Origin: a virus
Taxonomy: Duplodnaviria; Caudoviricetes
Virus record (IMG/VR): IMGVR_UViG_3300026274_000001
Length of the DNA stretch: 64,000 nucleotides
Direction: 5' to 3' (one strand)
Part shown: one piece after another, positions 20,038 through 52,773 of the stretch
How positions within the stretch are numbered: position 1 is the first letter of the stretch
How the letters are laid out: every line of letters starts with the position of its first letter
Translations under genes and position numbers: made by a program
Notes under the pieces: model-generated
The model's input: the letters and a program-made list of their open reading frames with translations, nothing else
The model's database searches: none
What the model was told of the DNA's origin: nothing

Positions 20038-21258
20038 TTACTGCTTTTGATCCAATATCATCTTGCAAGCATCAAGCATGAATGCGTGATCACTAAAATG
20101 ACCGTCATACATACCGCTGTTGAACCAAGCGTACTTCATAGACAACAGCATGGTGCCCATTTCCTTGCCAGGCTGCATACCAAGCTCCTTCAAGTCATCA
20201 CCAGTAATAGGAAACACTGGGACGTCCCATTGCTTGATTTGATCTGCAACTGCAACTCGGCCAAGCATCAATGCTGCTTCCACTGCATAGTCAACTGAAG
20301 CACCTTGCATAACGATGCTTTCTTTGAGACGTTGAACAAGAACAGCATCATCCTTAGACTTGTAGTCCCTGAACTTCACCAAGTATTGCATCAAACGCGT
20401 GTCCTTGGTGCTGATCTTCAACCGCTTACCAAAGTCTGCGACTTGTTCCGTAGTTTTGAACAACGTGGTAAACACCGTTGCTGCATTCTTCGTATGTGCA
20501 ACAGCAACCTTCATTGCTGCCAAACGTGTATCAGTGGGTTGTGGCAAGTCGCTGGGCATCAATACATTGCACTGTGACATTACTTCATAAACGGCAGGGG
20601 CGGACGGGTGCGTCATCATCTTACTGACTTCCTGCCACACACGCTCACTAGATACTTGCCTCAAGCCTTCAGCATATTTTGTGATAGCTGCAATCTGCGT
20701 GACATCGTATGCACCTTTGCTGAAACGACCTGAAAATCTAAAGAACCGCAAAATGCGCAAGTAGTCTTCTTGAATGCGCAAAGCAGGGTCACCAACAAAG
20801 CGCACAACTCCAGCCACCAAATCCTTCTGGCCTTCGTACGGATCGTCCAACACGCCGTCAAATGTCATCGACATCGCATTGATAGTCAAGTCACGCCGAG
20901 CCAAATCCTCGTACCACAAACGCGTGAATGTGACCTTTGCATGACGACCATCCGTCTCCGTATCGTAGCGCAAGCTGGTGATTTCGTATGTTTCACCATT
21001 GATGATTACCGAAATAGTACCGTGATCAATTCCGGTTGGCTCGAACCGAATGCCAGCCTTAGTATAGATACGAATAGCTTCATCAGGAAATGCGTCAGTG
21101 CAGAGGTCGATATCCTTGGGTGTTTGATCGCAGAGAATATCACGAACAGCACCACCTACGATTCGAATATCGAATCCGTCGGCCTGAAACAAGGCGCGTA
21201 ATGCGAGCAAATCAGCATTAACTACTTGATCAAGTATTTTGGTATGCATTGTGTTCAT
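20038..21258 (-). CDS. cca: CCA-adding tRNA nucleotidyltransferase
   Basis: VGGAVRD, DIDLCT, EITSLR, EDLARRDLTINAM, RIQEDYLRILRFFRF. Confidence 0.93.
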   Translation of the reverse strand: MNTMHTKILDQVVNADLLALRALFQADGFDIRIVGGAVRDILCDQTPKDIDLCTDAFPDEAIRIYTKAGIRFEPTGIDHGTISVIINGETYEITSLRYDTETDGRHAKVTFTRLWYEDLARRDLTINAMSMTFDGVLDDPYEGQKDLVAGVVRFVGDPALRIQEDYLRILRFFRFSGRFSKGAYDVTQIAAITKYAEGLRQVSSERVWQEVSKMMTHPSAPAVYEVMSQCNVLMPSDLPQPTDTRLAAMKVAVAHTKNAATVFTTLFKTTEQVADFGKRLKISTKDTRLMQYLVKFRDYKSKDDAVLVQRLKESIVMQGASVDYAVEAALMLGRVAVADQIKQWDVPVFPITGDDLKELGMQPGKEMGTMLLSMKYAWFNSGMYDGHFSDHAFMLDACKMILDQKQ

Positions 21259-23603: not shown

Positions 23604-24896
23604 TTATTTCGTGTTATTCAATCTGCGCAACTTGCGTACCGCATCGACAACTCCCGTTGTCGTTTGTTCCTTCACCCCTCGATGACGAATCGTTGCTTCA
23701 AAGTTCGCCATTTCCTTGTCACCAATAATGACAACGGCTGGAACACTTTTACCCAAGAAACCTTTCATTCGTTTGTTGAAGTGCGACGGATCTGAGTTGA
23801 TCTCAACTCGTATGCCTTCACCTTCCAATTGCTCAAGTACATTCTTGGCAAAGCGTAAATGATCCGCACCAACAGGAACAATACCCACTTGCAAGGGGCA
23901 CAACCAGAATGGTAGTTTCCCTTCATGATGTTCTAATAGAATGCCCATAAAGCGTTCCACAGAGCCTAGGATCGCCCGGTGCAGCATAACTGGATGCGCG
24001 CTTGTACCTTCCGTCGTGATGTATTGGGCCCCCAACCGTTCAGGTAGAACTAGATCGAGTTGCAGCGTTCCACATTGCCATTGACGCCCACGTTTATCCG
24101 TTAGGGTGAATTCAAGCTTGGGACCATAGAATGCACCTTCGCCTGGTTGCAGTTCAACTACCAAGCCGGCGGCGATCGCAGCATCAGCTAACCCCTTTTC
24201 AGCTAGATCCCAAGTTGCATCGGTGCCTGCTCGCTTTTCTGGTCGTGTTGACAGCTTAACTGATACGTCATGGAAGCCGAAGTCTCGGTAAACATCCAAC
24301 AGCAGCTTGCAGAACTTCACACTTTCTTCATTGATTTGTTCTTCAGTACAGAAAATATGAGCGTCGTCTTGTGTGAAGGCACGCACCCGCATTAAGCCTA
24401 GAAGGGAACCTGATGGTTCATTACGGTGACACGCACCGAATTCAGCTAAGCGCATGGGAAGCTGCTTATATGATACTAAGCCATGATTGAAAATCTGCAC
24501 ATGGCCGGGGCAATTCATTGGCTTGAGCGCTAGGTACTTTACATCTGATGCGCCACAGTTGCAATCAAGGCTGCTTTGCGATTCCCAGGAAAAACAATTT
24601 TCCTTATGATTGTGATCTGCATCTTGTTCAGTGACAAACATGTTTTCACGATACTTGTCCCAATGGCCAGACTTTTCCCACAATGAACGATCCATCAGCT
24701 GGGGAGTTTTTACTTCCTGGTAGCCATCTTTACGAACTTTGTCTCGAATATATTCTTCAATAGTACGGAACAACGTGTAGCCGTTTGGATGCCAAAATAC
24801 GCTCCCAATTGCTTCTTCCTGTATATGAAAGAGATCCAAGTCTTTGCCAATCTGGCGGTGATCTCCCGCTTCTAAATCATTCACATTAGTCTCCAT
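23604..24896 (-). CDS. thrS: Threonyl-tRNA synthetase, catalytic + anticodon domains only
   Basis: DHRQIGKDLDLF, KPMNCPGH, CHRNEPSG, RVRAFTQDDAH, GAFYGPK, MLHRAILGSVERF. Confidence 0.95.
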   Translation of the reverse strand: METNVNDLEAGDHRQIGKDLDLFHIQEEAIGSVFWHPNGYTLFRTIEEYIRDKVRKDGYQEVKTPQLMDRSLWEKSGHWDKYRENMFVTEQDADHNHKENCFSWESQSSLDCNCGASDVKYLALKPMNCPGHVQIFNHGLVSYKQLPMRLAEFGACHRNEPSGSLLGLMRVRAFTQDDAHIFCTEEQINEESVKFCKLLLDVYRDFGFHDVSVKLSTRPEKRAGTDATWDLAEKGLADAAIAAGLVVELQPGEGAFYGPKLEFTLTDKRGRQWQCGTLQLDLVLPERLGAQYITTEGTSAHPVMLHRAILGSVERFMGILLEHHEGKLPFWLCPLQVGIVPVGADHLRFAKNVLEQLEGEGIRVEINSDPSHFNKRMKGFLGKSVPAVVIIGDKEMANFEATIRHRGVKEQTTTGVVDAVRKLRRLNNTK

Positions 24897-25235
24897 GAAA
24901 TTAATTGTATGATTTTATAGGAAAATAATGTTTGGTGCTATATAAGCCCACGAATGAATGAAAATAGTAAGACCCTTTGTTTAACCAGGCGGTCCATGAT
25001 TACGGAAATCCTTACGGGCCGTACATCAATTACTTTCCTGTCGCGTGTGGTCGGATCACTTGCTCATAGCTTTGGTCCGGGGTTTCCAAAGCCGTTTTTA
25101 CTGCACCTACCGATCGTGCCTATAGTATATCAGAGTGTCGGGTGACATACGTCATTATATAAATTGGCTATTATATATCAAAATAATTATTTCTATTTTG
25201 CATCCTATGTGAAATGGCACCACAATGCATTCACT

Positions 25236-28748: not shown

Positions 28749-28825
28749 GCGGCGTTAGCTCAGACGGATAGAGCACGAGCCTTCTAAGCTCGGGGTCACT
28801 GGTTCGAATCCAGTACGCCGTACCA
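28749..28825 (+). tRNA. tRNA-Arg (anticodon TCT), CCA encoded
   Basis: Cloverleaf: GCGGCGT/ACGCCGT acceptor, GCTC/GAGC D stem, CGAGC-CTTCTAA-GCTCG, ACTGG-TTCGAAT-CCAGT, ACCA. Confidence 0.97.
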
Positions 28826-37987: not shown

Positions 37988-39100
37988 ATGATGACAAACA
38001 TTATTACCCCAGCATCGCAACGAACCGACACAATCAACTTCATCCTGCGTGGGCAACCACAGCACATCGCGCATGAAAAGACCTTTCACGAAGCTGCTAA
38101 GCAATGCGGCACGCTGAACCTCATTTACGGTTGCGCAAACCAACCGCGCGATGATGCAGATCCCTTTTACCAAGAAGAACGTATTGAAGTCGGTAAGCGT
38201 ATTACTGCCAACTTCAAGCAAAAATACAACTGCGACGTGAATTTCCTGTCGGTCGAGAACAGCATCTACAACAATACCCAATGGGGTAACTGGGTTGCAG
38301 AAGCTGTTGCACCGTATGCACACGGTAAGGTAAAGCTGATCGGCCACAACAAGGACGATACTAGCTTCTATCTCAACATGTTCCCGCAATGGGGCGAACC
38401 TATCCTGCTGCCGCAATTCGACGTTCTGGATGCGAGCACAATTCGCAACCTGTACTTCAGCAAGAAAAACAACCTCGACTTCTTCCGTCATGTTTGCCCT
38501 GATGCGACTATCAGCTTCTTGGAAGAGTTCATGCACACTGAGGCTTACGACTACATTGTCGAAGAAGCCAACTACATCAAGAAGTACCGAGAACAAACCC
38601 GTGCTGGTCAAAAGTATGCACCTACGTTCCAAACGGGCGACGCAATTGTTATCAAGTCTAATCACGTTCTGATGATTCAACGCCGTTCCCAACCAGGCAA
38701 GGATCTGTGGGCATTCCCTGGTGGCTTCCTGCGTTCAGAAGATGAAATGGTCAATGGTGAATTGAAGAAGGCTGATCTTGACGTTGTCGATACTGCTCTT
38801 CGTGAACTTACGGAAGAAACTCGTATCAAGCTTCCGCCAGCACTGTTGCGTGGTAGCATTCGTGCTGAAAAGCGCTTTATGCACCCGAAGCGTTCCCGTC
38901 GTGGTCGCGTGACTACCACTGCGCAATTGATCGTTTTAGATGATTCGGAATATAAGGGTTTCCCGAAGGTCAAGGCGCGCGATGATGCAAAGCAAGCTGA
39001 ATGGGTTCACATGAACGACGTAAAGCGTCGTGAGTCCTTCGAGGACCACTTCGATATGCTGCTCTGGGCAAGGGCAATGACTTCTGACGTTCGACTTTAA
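37988..39100 (+). CDS. Bifunctional NMN adenylyltransferase / Nudix (NadM-Nudix, NatV-like)
   Basis: QP.HIAH, DPF...ER, LIGHNKD.TSFYL.MFPQW, ASTIR; Nudix AFPGGF..ALRELTEET. Confidence 0.93.
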   Translation: MMTNIITPASQRTDTINFILRGQPQHIAHEKTFHEAAKQCGTLNLIYGCANQPRDDADPFYQEERIEVGKRITANFKQKYNCDVNFLSVENSIYNNTQWGNWVAEAVAPYAHGKVKLIGHNKDDTSFYLNMFPQWGEPILLPQFDVLDASTIRNLYFSKKNNLDFFRHVCPDATISFLEEFMHTEAYDYIVEEANYIKKYREQTRAGQKYAPTFQTGDAIVIKSNHVLMIQRRSQPGKDLWAFPGGFLRSEDEMVNGELKKADLDVVDTALRELTEETRIKLPPALLRGSIRAEKRFMHPKRSRRGRVTTTAQLIVLDDSEYKGFPKVKARDDAKQAEWVHMNDVKRRESFEDHFDMLLWARAMTSDVRL

Positions 39101-39170
39101 AGCTTGCGAATGATCCCACACCCTGATAGATGGATCAACTGTGGATCGGGGATCGCAAAGAGGAGACAAA

Positions 39171-39350
39171 ATGGATGATTTACAATACATGACACGTCGC
39201 AACAATCTGCTGAGTGAGCGAGAACGTGCGCAACATGATCTTGATCGTATTAATCGCCGTATCGAAGAATTGGATACCGAAAAACGCGTTCAAGATAGGC
39301 AAGAAATGGTTATTTTGATGAAGAACACAAACCTCGCTCAAATTAAGTAA
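39171..39350 (+). CDS. Small coiled-coil protein
   Basis: GAGGAG SD before ATG 39171. Confidence 0.65.
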   Translation: MDDLQYMTRRNNLLSERERAQHDLDRINRRIEELDTEKRVQDRQEMVILMKNTNLAQIK

Positions 39351-39400
39351 ATTTTGCGAACTGGCACAGAAATGTTATAACCATATCTACTGTAATTACT

Positions 39401-39808
39401 ATGGTAGATATGGATGCAATGAAGAATAACAAACTCGTATTGGATGAAGACCTGAAGGAAGTGTTGCAGTATCCGCAAGTTCGTAAAGTAACTGAGCGCT
39501 TGCAACAACGGTTAGAAGCCAAAGCAGAACGTAAAGGAAAAACCATGAAGGGCACAGTTGCAGAACTTAAAAAGATGCTCAACAACATGAATGACCAAGA
39601 TCTAGTTGTTACGCCTTTTGGGCGAGAGCGAGATCAAGTCACTCAAGCTGTACCAACAATTATTGAAGTGCTTGCTTTTGGTAAGAAGCGTGTCTTTAAT
39701 GAAGAACTGTTGGAATGGAATGGCGATCCGCGTGAATATGGATATCCTGACATGAAAGCCCTACAGGCTGACGGTGGTAAAATTGTAAAGGCAATTGTAT
39801 TACGATGA
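39401..39808 (+). CDS. Hypothetical protein
   Basis: 135 aa. Confidence 0.7.
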   Translation: MVDMDAMKNNKLVLDEDLKEVLQYPQVRKVTERLQQRLEAKAERKGKTMKGTVAELKKMLNNMNDQDLVVTPFGRERDQVTQAVPTIIEVLAFGKKRVFNEELLEWNGDPREYGYPDMKALQADGGKIVKAIVLR

Positions 39809-40230
39809 AAGTAAAAACATTAGAACAGCATCGCCAAGCACTTGAAGATCTCAGTAACGGGCGAGACACTGGTCATCGATTGTTTGCAGTCTTTGATGCA
39901 AGAATTAAGAATATATCACTTGAAGAAGCACTTGAACGAACGGCAGTCGCGGTTAAGAATTCAGTAGACCTTTTGGTGCGTGATATTAAAGATGGTGTTG
40001 ATACCGCACTAATGATGGACATACTTGACGATGCTCGCAATTTATTGGTTGACTTAGCAAAAGAATATAATAAGCCACCCGTCGAATTTAAATTAGCACC
40101 TTGTAAAAATATTCCGCTTTCAGAAGAAGCAAAAAGATTGCAACACAACTATGTGGCCCAGAAAACGCAACGGGCTGATCGATTGAAAGACCTAGTTGCA
40201 AAGAATAGAGTTGGTTTTACTATGCTTTAA
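39805..40230 (+). CDS. Hypothetical protein
   Basis: ATGA overlap. Confidence 0.7.
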   Translation: MKVKTLEQHRQALEDLSNGRDTGHRLFAVFDARIKNISLEEALERTAVAVKNSVDLLVRDIKDGVDTALMMDILDDARNLLVDLAKEYNKPPVEFKLAPCKNIPLSEEAKRLQHNYVAQKTQRADRLKDLVAKNRVGFTML

Positions 40231-40295
40231 CCATATTTGGTGCTTGCACCAAATACTGGCAATGTTATAATTTGCCAGTGTAGTATTAAACCCAA

Positions 40296-40319
40296 GTCCT
40301 CGAGATAGACTTGAGGCAC
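40296..40319 (+). promoter_or_regulatory. ATAGA-loop hairpin 4
   Basis: CCTCGAG-ATAGA-CTTGAGG with a G-U pair. Confidence 0.7.
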
Positions 40320-40342
40320 ATTAACTTGATAAGGAATTTATC

Positions 40343-41857
40343 ATGATCACAACAAAACTTCTCAACGACAACTTCTGCTTGGCTGCAGATGCCTATAAGT
40401 TCATGCACTATGCTCAGCTCCCTAAGGGTCTGAAGTTTGTGCAGAGCAGCGTGGTTCCACGCAAACCCAACGCGCATACTGATATGCTGGTAACTGCCGG
40501 TATTCAATACCTTGCAAAGTACCTTGCAAGCGTGCGTATCGACGAACATGATGTCGATGAATTGGTGTTAGAAGCAGGACAACAAGGCTACGAAGTTAAC
40601 GAAGCTAGCTGGCGTGATATGATTGCTCGTTTCGGTGGTCGTTTGCCCCTTCGTATTGAAGCATTGCCTGACGGTACGGTCGTTCGCCCGAACACCGCGG
40701 TCCTGACTATTGTCAATACCGACCCAGCATTTTACTGGTTGCCCTCGTATGTTGAAACAGTCGTCCAACGTATTATCTGGAAGTTTATGACTGTTGCTTC
40801 GATCAGCCGCTCGCTTTACAGCTTGCTGATGCAATATGCAATCAAGACTGGTGCAAATGTGGATATGGTTGTATATCAACTCCACAACTTTGGCGATCGC
40901 GGTGCTGACGCCGACGAAGCTGCACAATGGGCGGGAATCGCCCACGCAATGGTGTTTTCTGGCTCAGACAATTCCCGCGCCAATCCAAATATCAAGCGTC
41001 TTTACAACACTAAGAAGGCCTACACCTCATCTGTCGATGCAACTGAACATAGCACGATGTGCGCTAATTCTGATGCCAAGACGAAGAATGACTACGGCGC
41101 TGCTGTAATGCTTGTTGAGCGTCTGGAAGAAGCGGTTCGTCGTGCAGGTCGTGGTATTGGTGTTCCCGTGGTTAGCGGCGTAGTTGATACCTACAACCCA
41201 TATCGTTTTATCCGTGACTACTTGGGTTCTCCCGAACTGAAGGCGCGTATCGAAGCGTGTGGTCGTGCAGGCGGTAAGCTTGTTCTGCGTCCTGACAGCG
41301 GTGTTCCAGAAATCGAAGTGCCTAAGATCCTCGAGATTGCAGGTGAAGTATTTGGTTTCTCGGTCAACTCGCTGGGTTACAAGGAACTGGTTCCATATAT
41401 CGGCGTGCTGCAAGGCGACGGTATTAATCAAGAATCAGTACCACGTATTTTGGTAGCAACTTGCGATGTAGCTCGCTGGTCGTTTGGTAGCTTCCTGTTT
41501 GGTATGGGTGGTGGTTTGGTGCACGAAGCTGGACGTGATGAATTCTCATTCTCACAAAAGGCAACGGCTATGACGTTCAATTCGGACCCAAGCGTTAATG
41601 GTGACTGGATTGATCTGTTGAAGGAACCTATTACCGACACCAAGAAGAAGTCACTCACTGGATACATTATCAATGTGAAGGACGCTGATGGCACTATTCG
41701 CAGTATCAATCGCAAGAACTGGTACGGTGAAGCTATCGTGTACAACACTGTTGTTTTTGAAAACGGTGAAGCATTTGTTGATGACGTCAACTTTGACGAT
41801 GTTAAGGCTCGTGCTGTTGAAGGCATTAGCAAGACGGAACTGAAGCTGGCTGCATAA
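40343..41857 (+). CDS. nadV: Nicotinamide phosphoribosyltransferase (NAMPT/NadV)
   Basis: ADAYKFMH, LHNFGDRG, ATEHSTM, VVDTYN, LRPDSG, LQGDGI, FGMGGGL. Confidence 0.93.
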   Translation: MITTKLLNDNFCLAADAYKFMHYAQLPKGLKFVQSSVVPRKPNAHTDMLVTAGIQYLAKYLASVRIDEHDVDELVLEAGQQGYEVNEASWRDMIARFGGRLPLRIEALPDGTVVRPNTAVLTIVNTDPAFYWLPSYVETVVQRIIWKFMTVASISRSLYSLLMQYAIKTGANVDMVVYQLHNFGDRGADADEAAQWAGIAHAMVFSGSDNSRANPNIKRLYNTKKAYTSSVDATEHSTMCANSDAKTKNDYGAAVMLVERLEEAVRRAGRGIGVPVVSGVVDTYNPYRFIRDYLGSPELKARIEACGRAGGKLVLRPDSGVPEIEVPKILEIAGEVFGFSVNSLGYKELVPYIGVLQGDGINQESVPRILVATCDVARWSFGSFLFGMGGGLVHEAGRDEFSFSQKATAMTFNSDPSVNGDWIDLLKEPITDTKKKSLTGYIINVKDADGTIRSINRKNWYGEAIVYNTVVFENGEAFVDDVNFDDVKARAVEGISKTELKLAA

Positions 41858-48796: not shown

Positions 48797-49038
48797 CTGG
48801 AATCGCACACATAGTTTATTTGGTTAAATTCGATCTCGGATACTACGCCGATACTCAGTTTGATTACGATTGGAGTTACACTACTGACGTGTATGCTGCG
48901 AAGCGTTATAACTTAGAAGATTTGGCACACGAACGAGGCGAATGGGGAATTGGTTTGATACAAAATGATCTACAACCAATTCCAACCTCCTATGTGGTTG
49001 AGCAGTTCAAAATTACAACTATTATGGAACCTGTTTGA
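48793..49038 (+). CDS. Hypothetical protein
   Basis: 81 aa. Confidence 0.65.
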   Translation: MTGIAHIVYLVKFDLGYYADTQFDYDWSYTTDVYAAKRYNLEDLAHERGEWGIGLIQNDLQPIPTSYVVEQFKITTIMEPV

Positions 49039-49811
49039 TGACGCTTGCGGAAGCACACGCTTATGGTATTGATGTAACGGAAATTGGTGATAAGCTTTAT
49101 TTTGTAAAAGGCGGTCAACTGGTAGAACGATCGTGGATGAAACCAGAATATGATGGTGATAATTTCATCCCTCGTTCAGGTACAAACGCATACTGCTATC
49201 ATCTGATTTCACCAGAAGAATCAGCCAAATATGCGTTCGATGCCGTCTATTTTACCGATGACGTAATCTTGAAGGACGTAATGACTTTTATGCTGGCCAA
49301 TCCAGCATATCAAGCCATAATTGGCTGTCATTGCGTTGAAGTGAGTGAGCGTGGATTACAGCGCTTTATTCCCGTTGACAAACTTGACGGTGACATAGAA
49401 TACCTGGAAGTATACAGTTTGGAAACAATTGACAGCCATTCGGTTTACTATTGTGATGACTCTGAAGTTCAACAAGAATTACCAGCAATTCAAGGCTCTA
49501 GGTTCCCAAGCTTTCATGGTATCGGTCGTGTTCTTGAGAAAGATCAAGAACCTTATAAAAAGGGTGATCGTATTCAATGGGGGATATCAGCAAGCAATGC
49601 GGAAACTTTAGCTGCATTACCATTGCGTTTGAATCATACACATAACATTTATGATGAACGTATACCATTCAGCAGTTCTACAGAATATAAACCGTTGTTG
49701 ACTTACACCAGACTGTATTCAATGTTGGATGTATTAAAGGCAATCTTTTGGGAAATGACCTGGTATGGTCCACCAAAAGATCTTGATGATCTGGATGAAA
49801 TTGACATTTAA
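49035..49811 (+). CDS. Hypothetical protein
   Basis: 258 aa; FWEMTWYG.P C-terminus. Confidence 0.8.
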   Translation: MMTLAEAHAYGIDVTEIGDKLYFVKGGQLVERSWMKPEYDGDNFIPRSGTNAYCYHLISPEESAKYAFDAVYFTDDVILKDVMTFMLANPAYQAIIGCHCVEVSERGLQRFIPVDKLDGDIEYLEVYSLETIDSHSVYYCDDSEVQQELPAIQGSRFPSFHGIGRVLEKDQEPYKKGDRIQWGISASNAETLAALPLRLNHTHNIYDERIPFSSSTEYKPLLTYTRLYSMLDVLKAIFWEMTWYGPPKDLDDLDEIDI

Positions 49812-49812
49812 C

Positions 49813-49836
49813 AAAAAGGCCTCCGTGGAGGCCTTT
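49813..49836. terminator. Bidirectional terminator
   Basis: AAAAAGGCCTCCGTGGAGGCCTTT. Confidence 0.8.
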
Positions 49837-49839
49837 CTT

Positions 49840-50067
49840 TTACTTACCTGAAATAAACGCGTTCAACTGCGTTGCTTTTGCTATAACATTGGCTTCTGAC
49901 GGATATTCAGGCAGTACCGGTTTGGTCGGACTATTACCACGGTCCAGGTTATGATCGTATTCGCGCATTATCAATTCGCGTTCGCCATAGTATGCCTCGC
50001 ATAGCATCTCTTTAGCCATTTTCAGAAGTTCGAGTCTGATCTCGTATGGATTCTTGTTATTGTCCAT
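49840..50067 (-). CDS. Conserved T4-like phage hypothetical protein
   Basis: NPYEIRLELLKMAK.ML..YP....VI.KA..L..F; ATG 50067. Confidence 0.75.
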   Translation of the reverse strand: MDNNKNPYEIRLELLKMAKEMLCEAYYGERELIMREYDHNLDRGNSPTKPVLPEYPSEANVIAKATQLNAFISGK

Positions 50068-50215
50068 TTTGTGTGTCTCTGTGTGTATTGATGAAACTAT
50101 TTCATCAACCATGTTTATACAATTGGCAACCAGGTTAGTCAATATTGCACTTGATAGTGCATCAATTATCTAATATATTGGTAGTCAATTGAAATGAACT
50201 TTGAGGACTCGGCAC

Positions 50216-50863
50216 ATGAGCTATATTGATACCGTGGATCATTCATACGTAGGGCGCCTATTTGGCTGGCCAGTATATCATCCTCTGGGTGTTTACACTG
50301 ACGATGAGTTTGATGCTGATCCGTCCAATCTGGTTATTGGTGGTGGTAGCGGTGAACATCCGGGTATGGTGATCAAATCGCTTGACGCTTGTGTCTTACA
50401 GTATATTGAATTTTGCTATGAATATGCCAAGCTAGAAGAGCCTGACTGGCTCGGGAACCTGTACAATGAAGTGGCCGATTCCTATTTTAATCTGTTTGAT
50501 CATAAGTGGCCAATGCAATCAGTGTCAACTTTAGCTATCAAGGTAAAAGCCGCATTTGAAGAAGCGGTGGCCGACAAGATTAAGAATCCACCTCATATTG
50601 AAAATATGCTTGCGATCATGATTGGTGAATTTCTGTATTATTCTGCCCGTCGCTTGCTATCTGAAAAAGTGAATATAGCATTGATCGAACAGTTCAATGA
50701 CGTTTGGGCATTTTCGTTTTTTGAGGTTATCACTGTACCTGCAAAGGGTTATCCATCAAGTGGTCGTCGTCTAGGTATGGAGAATGGTGAGAGTAAGGTT
50801 ATTTGGGGATTGCGCTTCGAAGACGAGCAAAAATATCTTGATGAACATTCATCGAACTGCTAG
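50216..50863 (+). CDS. Hypothetical protein
   Basis: GAGGA SD before ATG 50216. Confidence 0.75.
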   Translation: MSYIDTVDHSYVGRLFGWPVYHPLGVYTDDEFDADPSNLVIGGGSGEHPGMVIKSLDACVLQYIEFCYEYAKLEEPDWLGNLYNEVADSYFNLFDHKWPMQSVSTLAIKVKAAFEEAVADKIKNPPHIENMLAIMIGEFLYYSARRLLSEKVNIALIEQFNDVWAFSFFEVITVPAKGYPSSGRRLGMENGESKVIWGLRFEDEQKYLDEHSSNC

Positions 50864-50893
50864 AGTGGTGGTATTAAATACAGGATGAACACT

Positions 50894-50965
50894 ATGTTTC
50901 TTTTGAACGACGATAATCGCGATAATATGTTGCCTTTGGGTGACAGGCGATTGCTCGTGCGTTAA
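50894..50965 (+). CDS. Asn/Asp-rich attenuator leader peptide (MFLLNDDNRDNMLPLGDRRLLVR)
   Basis: AGGA SD 8 nt upstream; 6 of 7 consecutive codons are Asn/Asp; directly upstream of aspS. Confidence 0.75.
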   Translation: MFLLNDDNRDNMLPLGDRRLLVR

Positions 50966-51014
50966 AACGACAACACTGACATCCAAAGGCGCTCCGTAAA
51001 ACGAGCGCTTTTTT
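50931..51014 (+). promoter_or_regulatory. Attenuator: antiterminator and mutually exclusive terminator
   Basis: GCCTTTGGGTG (50932-50942) pairs CATCCAAAGGC (50980-50990); terminator GCGCTC-CGTAAAAC-GAGCGC-TTTTTT (50989-51014) shares that arm. Confidence 0.8.
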
Positions 51015-51048
51015 GTTGACTATCTGAATCACACTTGAGGAAAATAAA

Positions 51049-52329
51049 ATGAGAGAACTACCAACAACCGTACACGAAGCCCCACACTATATTGGGCAAA
51101 CGGTAACCATGTATATGATTCTGGAAACCCTACGCGATCAGAAACACATGCAATTCATCATTGGACGGGAACGCACTGGCACTTTGCAGCTTGTGATTCA
51201 AAAGTCCAAAGTCGCAAACCATGCCGATATCTCGGAACTCCAACCCGGCTCTACATTTGCTGTGACTGGTACACTAGTCGAAGCTACCCAAAGCAAGACT
51301 CAGGGTATCGAGATGCAGGTTGATAGTGTTGAGATTTTCTCCAAAGCATGGCCGCGCCCTATCACGGAGGAGTCAGGTATTGAAGCACGCTTTGCTCATC
51401 GAGTCGTTGACTTGAAACTTCCAAAGTGGCAGCTGATGATGAAAATCAGAAGTGCCTTTGAAATGGGATGTCGCGAGTACGCACTGGAAAACGGCTGTAC
51501 GGAGTTGCATACTCCGAAGCTGATGGCCAGTGCCAGCGAAAGCGGTTCACAAGTATTCAAAGTTCAGTACTTCGACAAGTTTGCTTATTTGGCCCAGTCA
51601 CCACAGTTTTATAAGCAGATGGGCGTAGCATCAGGCCTTGATGGCGTGTTTGAAATTGGTCCAGTGTTCCGTGCTGAAGAAAGCCATAGCTCCCGCCACA
51701 TGACTGAATTTACTGGCCTGGACGTTGAATTTGCTTGGGCATTTACCACTCAGGATGTGATGACCTTTGAACTTCAAATGCTGCGTCGTGCATTTGAAAA
51801 GTTGCGTCCATTTGCTGCGCAAGCCAAAGAACTGTTTGGCGTTGAACTGCCTGAACACCCAGAATGTCGATTCATGACGCTTGCTGAAGCAAAGGAAATT
51901 GTCAAAGAACGTGGTATTATTCTTCCTGCCTCTGTGGACTTGTCTGACGAAGCAGAACGGGTGCTATATGAAATTACCGGCATTGACTTGATCTTTGTTA
52001 CCGACTATCCAATAGGTAAGCGTCCGTTCTATCATATGTGGGACAAAGAAAAGGGTATCACCCATAGCTTTGACTTGATCTTCAAGGGTATTGAAATCAC
52101 CACTGGTGCGTTGCGGGAACATCGACTCGATATCTTAACTGCGCAAGCAATTGAAAAGGGTGTTGACCCCAAGTCGATCGACCATTACCTTGACAACTTC
52201 CGCTATGGCTGTGCTCCTCATGGTGGGTTCGGTCTGGGTGTTGAACGTGTGATTGCAAAGCTCCTAGGGCTCTCTAGTGTGAAGGAAGCTGCATTTGTTC
52301 CTCGTGACCCAGATCGCCTCGTTCCATAA
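51049..52329 (+). CDS. aspS: Aspartyl-tRNA synthetase, archaeal/eukaryote-like short type
   Basis: OB domain, YLAQSPQFYKQM, GPVFRAEES..RHMTEF..LDVE, PHGGFGLGVER; no bacterial GAD insert. Confidence 0.93.
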   Translation: MRELPTTVHEAPHYIGQTVTMYMILETLRDQKHMQFIIGRERTGTLQLVIQKSKVANHADISELQPGSTFAVTGTLVEATQSKTQGIEMQVDSVEIFSKAWPRPITEESGIEARFAHRVVDLKLPKWQLMMKIRSAFEMGCREYALENGCTELHTPKLMASASESGSQVFKVQYFDKFAYLAQSPQFYKQMGVASGLDGVFEIGPVFRAEESHSSRHMTEFTGLDVEFAWAFTTQDVMTFELQMLRRAFEKLRPFAAQAKELFGVELPEHPECRFMTLAEAKEIVKERGIILPASVDLSDEAERVLYEITGIDLIFVTDYPIGKRPFYHMWDKEKGITHSFDLIFKGIEITTGALREHRLDILTAQAIEKGVDPKSIDHYLDNFRYGCAPHGGFGLGVERVIAKLLGLSSVKEAAFVPRDPDRLVP

Positions 52330-52389
52330 ACTGCTTGATACGATGCTCATATGAACTTATCATGTGAGCATCATTTTCATGGAGGTATT

Positions 52390-52773
52390 ATGGTTACCAC
52401 AGAGAGTCTGTTTCAAAATATCAACGATTTCCTTGCTGAGCGTAAGGAAAGCAGCCCGGGTGGTGGTTGGGCACCAGTCACCCAAAAAGAAATGGAGGCC
52501 ATGTACGATATTATCAACGGCTTGATTGAACTCAAATATGAGTACGACGCGGACCATGACCTCCCGATGACCGTACGGCTGCTTGATCGCACCATGTTCA
52601 AGTCGAGCTTCTATGACCCCATGTTTCAAGACCATGCGTTTGACGGATACACGGAAGCTGACATCGCGAAGCTCAATCTTAGCCGAGCAGTCATGAATGT
52701 TGGCATAGCGGCCGACGAAGTGAAGTTAGCGACGCGTGTGCTTGATATGCACATTACTGGAAATAAAAAATGA
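52390..52773 (+). CDS. Hypothetical protein
   Basis: GGAGG SD; promoter TTGATA 52335 / TATCAT 52358. Confidence 0.75.
   Translation: MVTTESLFQNINDFLAERKESSPGGGWAPVTQKEMEAMYDIINGLIELKYEYDADHDLPMTVRLLDRTMFKSSFYDPMFQDHAFDGYTEADIAKLNLSRAVMNVGIAADEVKLATRVLDMHITGNKK

Follow-up and report, generated by a model that had tools for sequence, protein, structure and literature searches.

Leader-peptide attenuation is a textbook mechanism. In Escherichia coli pheM-pheST, a short leader open reading frame (ORF) with many codons for the amino acid that the synthetase charges lies directly upstream of the aminoacyl-tRNA synthetase gene, the antiterminator and terminator hairpins exclude each other, and the ribosome senses tRNA charging. 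The trpL, hisL, thrL, and leuL leaders follow the same logic of 1:2, 2:3, and 3:4 pairings, with the regulatory codons in segment 1 and about 50 nt between the stop codon and the end of the U-tract. The T-box upstream of Firmicutes aspS and asnS serves a similar purpose, as antitermination raises the synthetase when the cognate tRNA is uncharged. Here, we describe the region upstream of an aspS gene, which encodes an archaeal-type aspartyl-tRNA synthetase (AspRS), in a 64,000-nt stretch of phage DNA (Duplodnaviria; Caudoviricetes; IMG/VR record IMGVR_UViG_3300026274_000001), hereafter the window. The elements found there very likely constitute a working ribosome-mediated (leader-peptide) transcription attenuator in front of the phage-borne gene, with Asn and Asp codons in the regulatory position.

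The structural arrangements of the leader-peptide attenuators, from the codon-rich leader ORF and the exclusive hairpins to the distance between stop codon and U-tract, recur at the phage locus, where the ribosome would again be the sensor. Compared with pheM-pheST, the codons are Asn/Asp instead of Phe, the gene encodes an archaeal-type, probably non-discriminating AspRS and is carried by a phage, the apical part of the 1:2 hairpin contains the antiterminator 5' arm, and there is no sequence or Rfam relationship. Unlike trpL, hisL, thrL, and leuL, the device would control a synthetase rather than a biosynthetic operon, and two amino acids would be read. The T-box binds uncharged tRNA directly and needs no translation, whereas here the translated leader would be the sensor. 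The Rfam models (Trp, His, Thr, Leu, and Phe leaders, and T-box) gave no match in 50838-51048 at E values up to 1. As far as sequence analysis can address them, the device has every structural feature of the attenuator class.

Elements of the leader region

An earlier note on this DNA had claimed a phage-encoded attenuator of the trp/his/pheST geometry that senses Asn and Asp. The leader Shine-Dalgarno (SD) sequence, the ORF, and the Asn/Asp (N/D) codons were all read at the positions it had given (Table 1). The run NDDNRDN is the sole 7-codon window with at least six Asn/Asp codons in the six frames of the whole 64 kb, against 0.13 expected from composition. The proposed pairing of segment 1, AATCGC (50915-20) with GCGATT (50947-52), is present and embedded in the longer 50906-20/50947-63 helix. 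The antiterminator has the announced 11 bp, one of them a G.U pair, and a further 3 bp after one mismatch. It overlaps the terminator, again as proposed, with a stem of 10 bp and a T6 run that ends 34 nt before the aspS ATG; the simple terminator scan of the window missed this hairpin.

The promoter claim held in part. The hexamers lie at 50838-50866; however, they match weakly, the simple promoter scan of the window did not list them, and transcription likely enters from upstream too. We regard TTGATG-17-TAGAGT as a weak promoter-like site in the window. The upstream ORF (50201-50863) stops with a TAG within the proposed -10 hexamer.

Table 1. Coordinates of the features in and around the aspS leader region of the window.
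Feature	Position	Strand	Description	Basis
Upstream sigma-70-like promoter	50151..50179	+	TTGATA-17-TATATT, 10/12	Promoter scan
Candidate leader promoter	50838..50866	+	TTGATG (50838-43)-17 nt-TAGAGT (50861-66); weak, 8/12 consensus positions	
Leader ORF SD	50882..50885	+	AGGA, 8 nt upstream of ATG 50894	
Leader ORF	50894..50965	+	23 codons + stop TAA 50963-65; peptide MFLLNDDNRDNMLPLGDRRLLVR	ORF translation; homologous ORFs in all leader-bearing relatives
Regulatory codon run	50906..50926	+	AAC GAC GAT AAT CGC GAT AAT = N D D N R D N (codons 5-11; 3 Asn, 3 Asp)	
1:2 hairpin (anti-antiterminator or pause hairpin)	50906..50963	+	50906-20/50947-63 + apical hairpin 50928-34/50939-45	Minimum free energy (MFE); RNAalifold
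Antiterminator 2:3	50932..50990	+	50932-42/50980-90, 11 bp incl. one G.U, + 3 bp past one mismatch	
Intrinsic terminator 3:4	50985..51014	+	10-bp stem 50985-94/51003-12, 8-nt loop, T6 51009-14	RNAfold -13.4 kcal/mol
aspS SD	51037..51041	+	GAGGA, 7 nt upstream of ATG 51049	
aspS, archaeal-type AspRS	51049..52329	+	426 aa	Pfam tRNA-synt_2 + OB domain; NF003483

Conservation in phage and bacterial homologues

A homologue protein search returned phage-like proteins at 77-87% identity and then bacterial proteins at 55-69% (Pandoraea, Burkholderia, and others), and the upstream DNA was read at 13 loci. The relatives were obtained solely via the protein index and metagenomes; a near-identity search of the phage collection gave no match, nor did DNA-pattern and protein scans of viral contigs. 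A leader with an N/D codon run and a terminator was present in 11 of the 13 homologue loci (at least 55% identity), phage and bacterial alike. Conserved leaders of this kind upstream of aspS homologues, on which the proposal of the earlier note depended, thus exist.

Among the phage-like loci, L001/L003 carry the leader MMFLFNNDNRDNMLPLGDRRLLIR, L005 carries VFKFNNDNRDNMLPLGNRRLFV, and L106 carries MFLIVNDDNRNDMLPLGDRRLLVR, each with a terminator and a well-placed promoter. The leader SD and start are kept in L001, L005, and L106 (AGGA or GAGGA, 6-8 nt before the leader start). The same three loci have better promoter hexamers than the window at the same position, namely TTGACG-17-TAGATT (L001), TTGACA-17-TAGAGT (L005), and TTGACG-17-TAGAGT (L106). 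The leaders of Pandoraea communis (L086; ...SLNNNLSPLGDRRLFVC), Burkholderia (L087/88; ...SLNQHNNPMSPLGDRSVFDC), and B. alba (L107; ...DLNNNVSPLGDRRLFAG) are followed by terminators with 7 U. A leader and a terminator were also found in the AT-rich, Legionella-like loci L089/L108, which have Icm and ankyrin neighbours (run ...FNNVDNNND...), and on a 26%-GC contig (L120; run ...LNDNNNND...). The genes upstream of the leader-bearing aspS genes have no relation to each other; Pandoraea has ureG there, Burkholderia a LacI-type gene region, L089 a gene of the Icm region, and the phages have phage genes. At L119 (1-2763), on a 207-kb contig with 45% GC, an aspS gene of 61% identity directly adjoins the RtcB RNA ligase gene (rtcB), without a leader; this contig is probably another large phage with a synthetase but without the attenuator.

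In a metagenome scan, the pattern consisted of the conserved antiterminator block and AAAGGC, and the Asn codons were left out of it. The scan gave 14 matches, 10 true leaders before aspS homologues and 4 chance matches. Each of the 10 true leaders has an in-frame run, which is NDDNRDN in one near-identical relative of the window and NNN in the others. In L104 (629-714), a near-identical relative of the window from another metagenome, a T-to-C change in the terminator 5' arm leaves a C.A mismatch, which is either a natural weaker-terminator variant or a sequencing error.

A genome-contig scan with protein alignment was swamped by distant archaeal-type AspRS (42-48% identity), and those loci were kept as an outgroup only. 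In this outgroup of about 77-79 loci, a clear N/D leader was present in two, both from Latescibacterota (L017 and L019), and one actinomycete was doubtful. The Latescibacterota leader (...GNNNDDNNPIRRRAGPA) resembles that of the phage in being an Asn/Asp mini-ORF with a terminator; its NNNDDNN run precedes a 9-bp GC-rich terminator with 7 U. Additionally, among 301 Burkholderiales genomes searched at the protein level, none but the Pandoraea genome described above gave the gene, and therefore this archaeal-type aspS is a rare accessory gene.

Covariation, RNA family, and origin of the leader

The covariation alignment comprised 14 sequences. In the terminator, 99.3% of cells are paired, with one position AU8/GC5/UA1; the apical hairpin is 100% paired, with one pair CG9/UG4/UA1; the antiterminator is 92.9% paired, where L001 shows two wobble changes and in L005 both bases of one pair differ (A-U for G-C). 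As judged from this alignment, all three helices appear to keep pairing and to show compensatory changes. RNAalifold without a supplied structure recovered the terminator, the apical hairpin, and the helix adjoining the codon run. In this last helix, the phage pairing GCGAU/AUUGC corresponds to the bacterial AAUAA/UUAUU, with pairs AU9/GC3/GU2 and UA8/CG4/UG2. The trp/his/pheST-type geometry proved to be real and conserved across phage and bacterial homologues, with compensatory changes.

A covariance model, R1, took the leaders of phages and Burkholderiaceae as its input. R1 found the Legionella-like and AT-rich leaders, which had not been used in building it, at full length with 45-48 bits (E values of about 1e-8 to 1e-9); the window and the Pandoraea genome each yielded a single copy. 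From these results, one RNA family spans phages, Burkholderiaceae, and Legionella-like bacteria. The Latescibacterota leaders were not detected in the R1 search, and theirs may be a separate invention.

In the protein tree, the 30 close homologues form one clade (Shimodaira-Hasegawa-like approximate likelihood ratio test, SH-aLRT, 100), in which the five phage-type proteins group together (99). A polytomy joins the clades of phages, Burkholderiaceae, and Legionella-like bacteria, and the tree fixes neither the direction of transfer nor the donor. As leader-bearing lineages occur in three subclades, the leader is most simply ancestral to the clade and lost in L119 and L121. Because a model built without the Legionella-like leaders finds them at E values of about 1e-9, the phage leader is, by its sequence, homologous to the leader of the bacterial gene family, and the device would not be a phage invention. 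The wide bacterial spread points to a transfer from bacteria to phage. Hence the attenuator was rightly called phage-encoded in that the element lies on phage DNA, but R1 indicates shared ancestry with bacterial leaders rather than invention by the phage.

Exclusive folds and the predicted effect of a stalled ribosome

The energies were -20.8 kcal/mol for the core of the 1:2 hairpin (-24.2 extended) and -26.1 kcal/mol for the 2:3 antiterminator with its inner hairpin; that of the 3:4 terminator is given in Table 1. The whole free leader has an MFE of -48.5 kcal/mol (z = -2.84 against shuffles) and folds into the 1:2 hairpin followed by the terminator. The antiterminator 3' strand (50980-90) overlaps the terminator 5' arm (50985-94), and 2:3 and 3:4 are mutually exclusive because the antiterminator uses six bases of this arm.

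For the ribosome-constrained folding, a 28-nt footprint was blocked codon by codon along the window leader. The probability of the terminator was 1.00 in the free RNA and fell to 0.13-0.18 when the A site was placed at codons 6-9 (D, D, N, R), where the antiterminator was the dominant fold; it was back to 1.00 when the ribosome covered 50932-42. The alternative states anticipated by the earlier note were thereby recovered, as the folds exclude each other and the constrained folds go from terminator to antiterminator with a ribosome on the N/D codons. In this modelling, the switch was very clean in two other lineages: segment 3 pairing in L089 was 0.04 without a ribosome, 0.97 in the stalls, and 0.02 afterwards, and L017 behaved similarly. 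A terminator probability taken from the inner stem pairs was an uninformative measure and was replaced.

The note had also stated that translation to the stop codon covers segment 2. The antiterminator 5' arm is directly covered while the ribosome passes codons 12-17; however, a ribosome at the stop codon covers about 50948-77 and leaves 50932-42 uncovered. In the model, the block of the antiterminator by a ribosome at that position is steric or topological.

In the full-length MFE structure, the leader SD region GGAUG (50883-50887) pairs with CAUCC of segment 3 (50980-50984), as is also seen in L001 and L106. This pairing might limit re-initiation on terminated or read-through RNA.

The synthetase and the amino acids presumably read

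The AspRS has a class II D/K/N core and an OB anticodon domain (Pfam). It passed the NCBIfam equivalog NF003483, aspartate--tRNA(Asn) ligase, with 415.3 bits against a cut-off of 353, and its closest solved relative is 1n9w, the non-discriminating AspRS2 of Thermus thermophilus. The comparison with solved structures gave no residue-level answer on a discriminating or non-discriminating AspRS. The phage enzyme is likely non-discriminating, as judged from these matches. Just after the aspS stop codon (52335-52372), a 13-bp hairpin (52342-72) overlaps a promoter-like TTGATA-17-TATCAT, right before the ORF 52351-52773.

Asn codons are present in every leader-bearing lineage. The Burkholderiaceae runs are NNN, without Asp, and Asp codons occur within the run in all five phage-type leaders, both AT-rich lineages, and Latescibacterota. 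Across the five phage-type leaders, each of the 30 cells at the six N/D positions has Asn or Asp; DN becomes ND in L106 and D becomes N in L001 and L005, with no other residue. Such N/D-only swapping at fixed positions argues that both amino acids are under selection. From these comparisons, Asn is the predicted universal signal, and Asp an addition in the phages, the Legionella-like lineages, and Latescibacterota.

The Pandoraea genome contains a bacterial-type aspS (815 bits) and gatB (570 bits), and no asparaginyl-tRNA synthetase (AsnRS) above the cut-off was found in it. The switch therefore fits the indirect Asn-tRNA pathway, in which Asn-tRNA is made from Asp-tRNA(Asn). In Pandoraea, it would make physiological sense to induce a second AspRS when Asn codons are decoded slowly.

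Transcription across the leader

Four metatranscriptome libraries contain the stretch. In three RNA libraries, contigs begin at 50202-50212, and a hole lies at about 49894-50175; the same region is spanned by one contig in each of the DNA runs X1 and X4 and breaks inside in the low-depth DNA run X6. The RNA-library contigs from about 50212 pass the leader and the terminator into aspS. The region 50151-50212 is likely the transcription start for ORF 50201-50863, also feeding the aspS leader. Taken as a whole, the contigs suggest real transcripts, entry also from upstream (about 50205), and some read-through of the terminator.

Proposed mechanism and alternative explanations

We infer that the leader is translated, that ribosomes stall in it, that stalling controls read-through, and that the enzyme acts on tRNA-Asn. 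Transcripts would enter from 50838-66, from upstream, or from both, and the leader ORF would be translated as RNA polymerase moves on. With charged tRNA-Asn and tRNA-Asp plentiful, the ribosome would cross codons 5-11 and then 50932-42 up to the stop codon, and no antiterminator would form; the terminator would fold and transcription would end 34 nt before aspS. If the leader were not translated, the 1:2 hairpin would form first, with the same termination outcome. A stall on the Asn/Asp codons, especially codons 5-9, would hold segment 1 in the ribosome and abolish the 1:2 hairpin. The strands 50932-42 and 50980-90 would then pair, the base of the terminator would be sequestered, and polymerase would read into aspS. 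The extra AspRS would supply more Asp-tRNA(Asp) and, in hosts with the indirect Asn-tRNA pathway, also Asp-tRNA(Asn) for GatCAB.

Several observations weigh against this mechanism or parts of it. The leader was not found upstream of aspS at two related loci, L119 and L121; the window's own leader promoter fits 8 of 12 positions only; and the RNA-library contigs show neither RNA ends nor levels. The antiterminator core is nearly invariant, so it gains little support from covariation, and its 5' arm sits in the apex of the 1:2 hairpin, not in the 3' strand. A ribosome on the last two N/D codons covers GCC at 50932-34, and the terminator persists. For most homologues, the full-length RNA at equilibrium favours the terminator despite a stalled ribosome, and RNA ending before the terminator 3' arm often favours the antiterminator even without one. 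The choice of fold must therefore be kinetic; the constrained-fold outcome varies with footprint and transcript length, as expected of a kinetic switch. A possible pseudoknot of segment 3 with the 1:2 apical loop would also blur the logic. Regarding the enzyme, the non-discriminating character suggested by the earlier note agrees with NF003483, but the score against TIGR00458 (aspS_nondisc) is 344, below the cut-off of 368.4.

A narrower device would sense Asn-tRNA(Asn) only, and the Asp codons of the phages would be passengers kept mainly for pairing in the 1:2 helix. The pure NNN runs of all Burkholderiaceae leaders agree with this, as do the Asn codons being the sole feature common to every lineage and the carrier genome without AsnRS that uses GatCAB, where Asn-tRNA is the logical limiting species. 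We nevertheless think it rather unlikely, since the six N/D positions of the phage-type leaders swap between these two residues and never to another, and Asp codons belong to the run of three independent lineages of bacteria (NNVDNNND, NDNNNND, and NNNDDNN). If there were no regulation at all, the hairpin and T-run would simply end transcription of the upstream gene (50201-50863), and chance would account for the short ORF and the alternative pairing. Such a coincidence is very improbable: the terminator does lie after the upstream ORF, and the leader promoter in the window is weak, but leader, N/D run, and terminator recur before aspS homologues with unrelated upstream neighbours, the codon run is unique in 64 kb, and compensatory changes keep the codon-containing helix.

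Other explanations accept a translated leader and change what it reports. Stalling could reflect the modification state of queuosine (Q)-modified tRNAs, or a wobble-decoding defect, instead of charging. The regulatory codons are all NAY, read by Q34 tRNAs (Asn, Asp, and His in one Burkholderia leader); those of the run are AAY/GAY, mostly U-ending, even in the GC-rich Burkholderiaceae. We also counted in its favour that, in other bacteria, the his attenuator is reportedly induced when Q is lost (preprint 10.64898/2026.05.06.723185). However, charging directly accounts for a regulated gene that encodes the synthetase of precisely these two tRNAs, pairing with AUUAUU in the 1:2 helix also demands the U-ending codons, and Tyr and His codons are not generally enriched; on balance, we see very little chance for this explanation. 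A more specific version, in which the leader would read the function of the host's queuosine-dependent NAY-decoding tRNAs (Asn, Asp), not amino-acid supply, and would warn the phage early when host tRNAs are damaged or hypomodified or when defence puts translation under stress, with the phage's own synthetase as the answer, seems quite improbable. A role of the leader peptide itself, in which its PLGDRR part would arrest the ribosome as a nascent chain or work as a free micropeptide and the RNA pairings would be secondary, is hardly credible. PLGDR(R) is kept from the phages to Pandoraea and Burkholderia, but the conservation of PLGDR is at the nucleotide level, synonymous sites included, and the changes within it keep pairs (in L005, AAC replaces GAC and U.G becomes U-A; in L106, GGC replaces GGT and G.U becomes G-C), with D to N tolerated. 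Moreover, the Legionella-like and Latescibacterota leaders lack the motif, yet have the N/D run and the terminator.

Phage context of the window

The source of the window is very probably a jumbo phage. The window has densely packed small ORFs and one tRNA-Arg, and the same AspRS was found on contigs of about 224 kb. The PHROG matches include a tRNA nucleotidyltransferase, NAMPT, a cytidyltransferase/Nudix protein, RNase H, an endolysin-like protein, and several phage-only families with unknown function; no structural hallmark gene was found within the window. A CCA-adding enzyme (20038-21258, - strand), a tRNA-Arg(TCT) (28749-28825), and a NAMPT + NMNAT/Nudix NAD-salvage pair (37988-41857), with two synthetases, point to a phage richly equipped for translation and metabolism.

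The other synthetase is a threonyl-tRNA synthetase (ThrRS) of 430 aa (23604-24896, - strand), without the N-terminal editing part. No Thr-codon leader ORF was found in the 270-nt region upstream of it (24897-25163), where a hairpin GGCTTTGG...CCAAAGC is located. This second phage synthetase is therefore not under the same type of leader. After the ORF 49035-49811, a perfect 9-bp hairpin (AAAGGCCTCC/GGAGGCCTTT, 49815-49836) has T-runs on both strands, as a bidirectional terminator. It accounts for weak Rfam matches to ctRNA_p42d and Phe_leader, the latter at 49709-49873 (E values of 0.47 and 1) and thus on a different hairpin from those before aspS.

Novelty and meaning

The earlier note knew of no described phage attenuator of this kind. 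In the literature, likewise, neither an Asn/Asp leader nor leader-peptide attenuation in a phage was found described, within a coverage that leaves out most subscription journals, so that this absence is not proof. A leader specific for Asn/Asp, its association with an additional AspRS, of archaeal type, in bacteria with indirect Asn-tRNA synthesis, and its carriage by a phage appear to be undescribed. New here are the phage carrier and the RNA family of Burkholderiaceae and Legionella-like bacteria tied to an accessory archaeal-type AspRS.

Attenuation at Asn and Asp codons would provide a testable regulator for the tRNA-dependent asparagine pathway. The five phage variants that toggle N and D at fixed positions form a natural mutant series for dual amino-acid sensing. 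With such a device, a phage can take over a host cis-regulatory sensor along with the gene, and the auxiliary translation gene would be on only when the charged tRNA pool of the host fails, which bears on why large phages carry synthetases.

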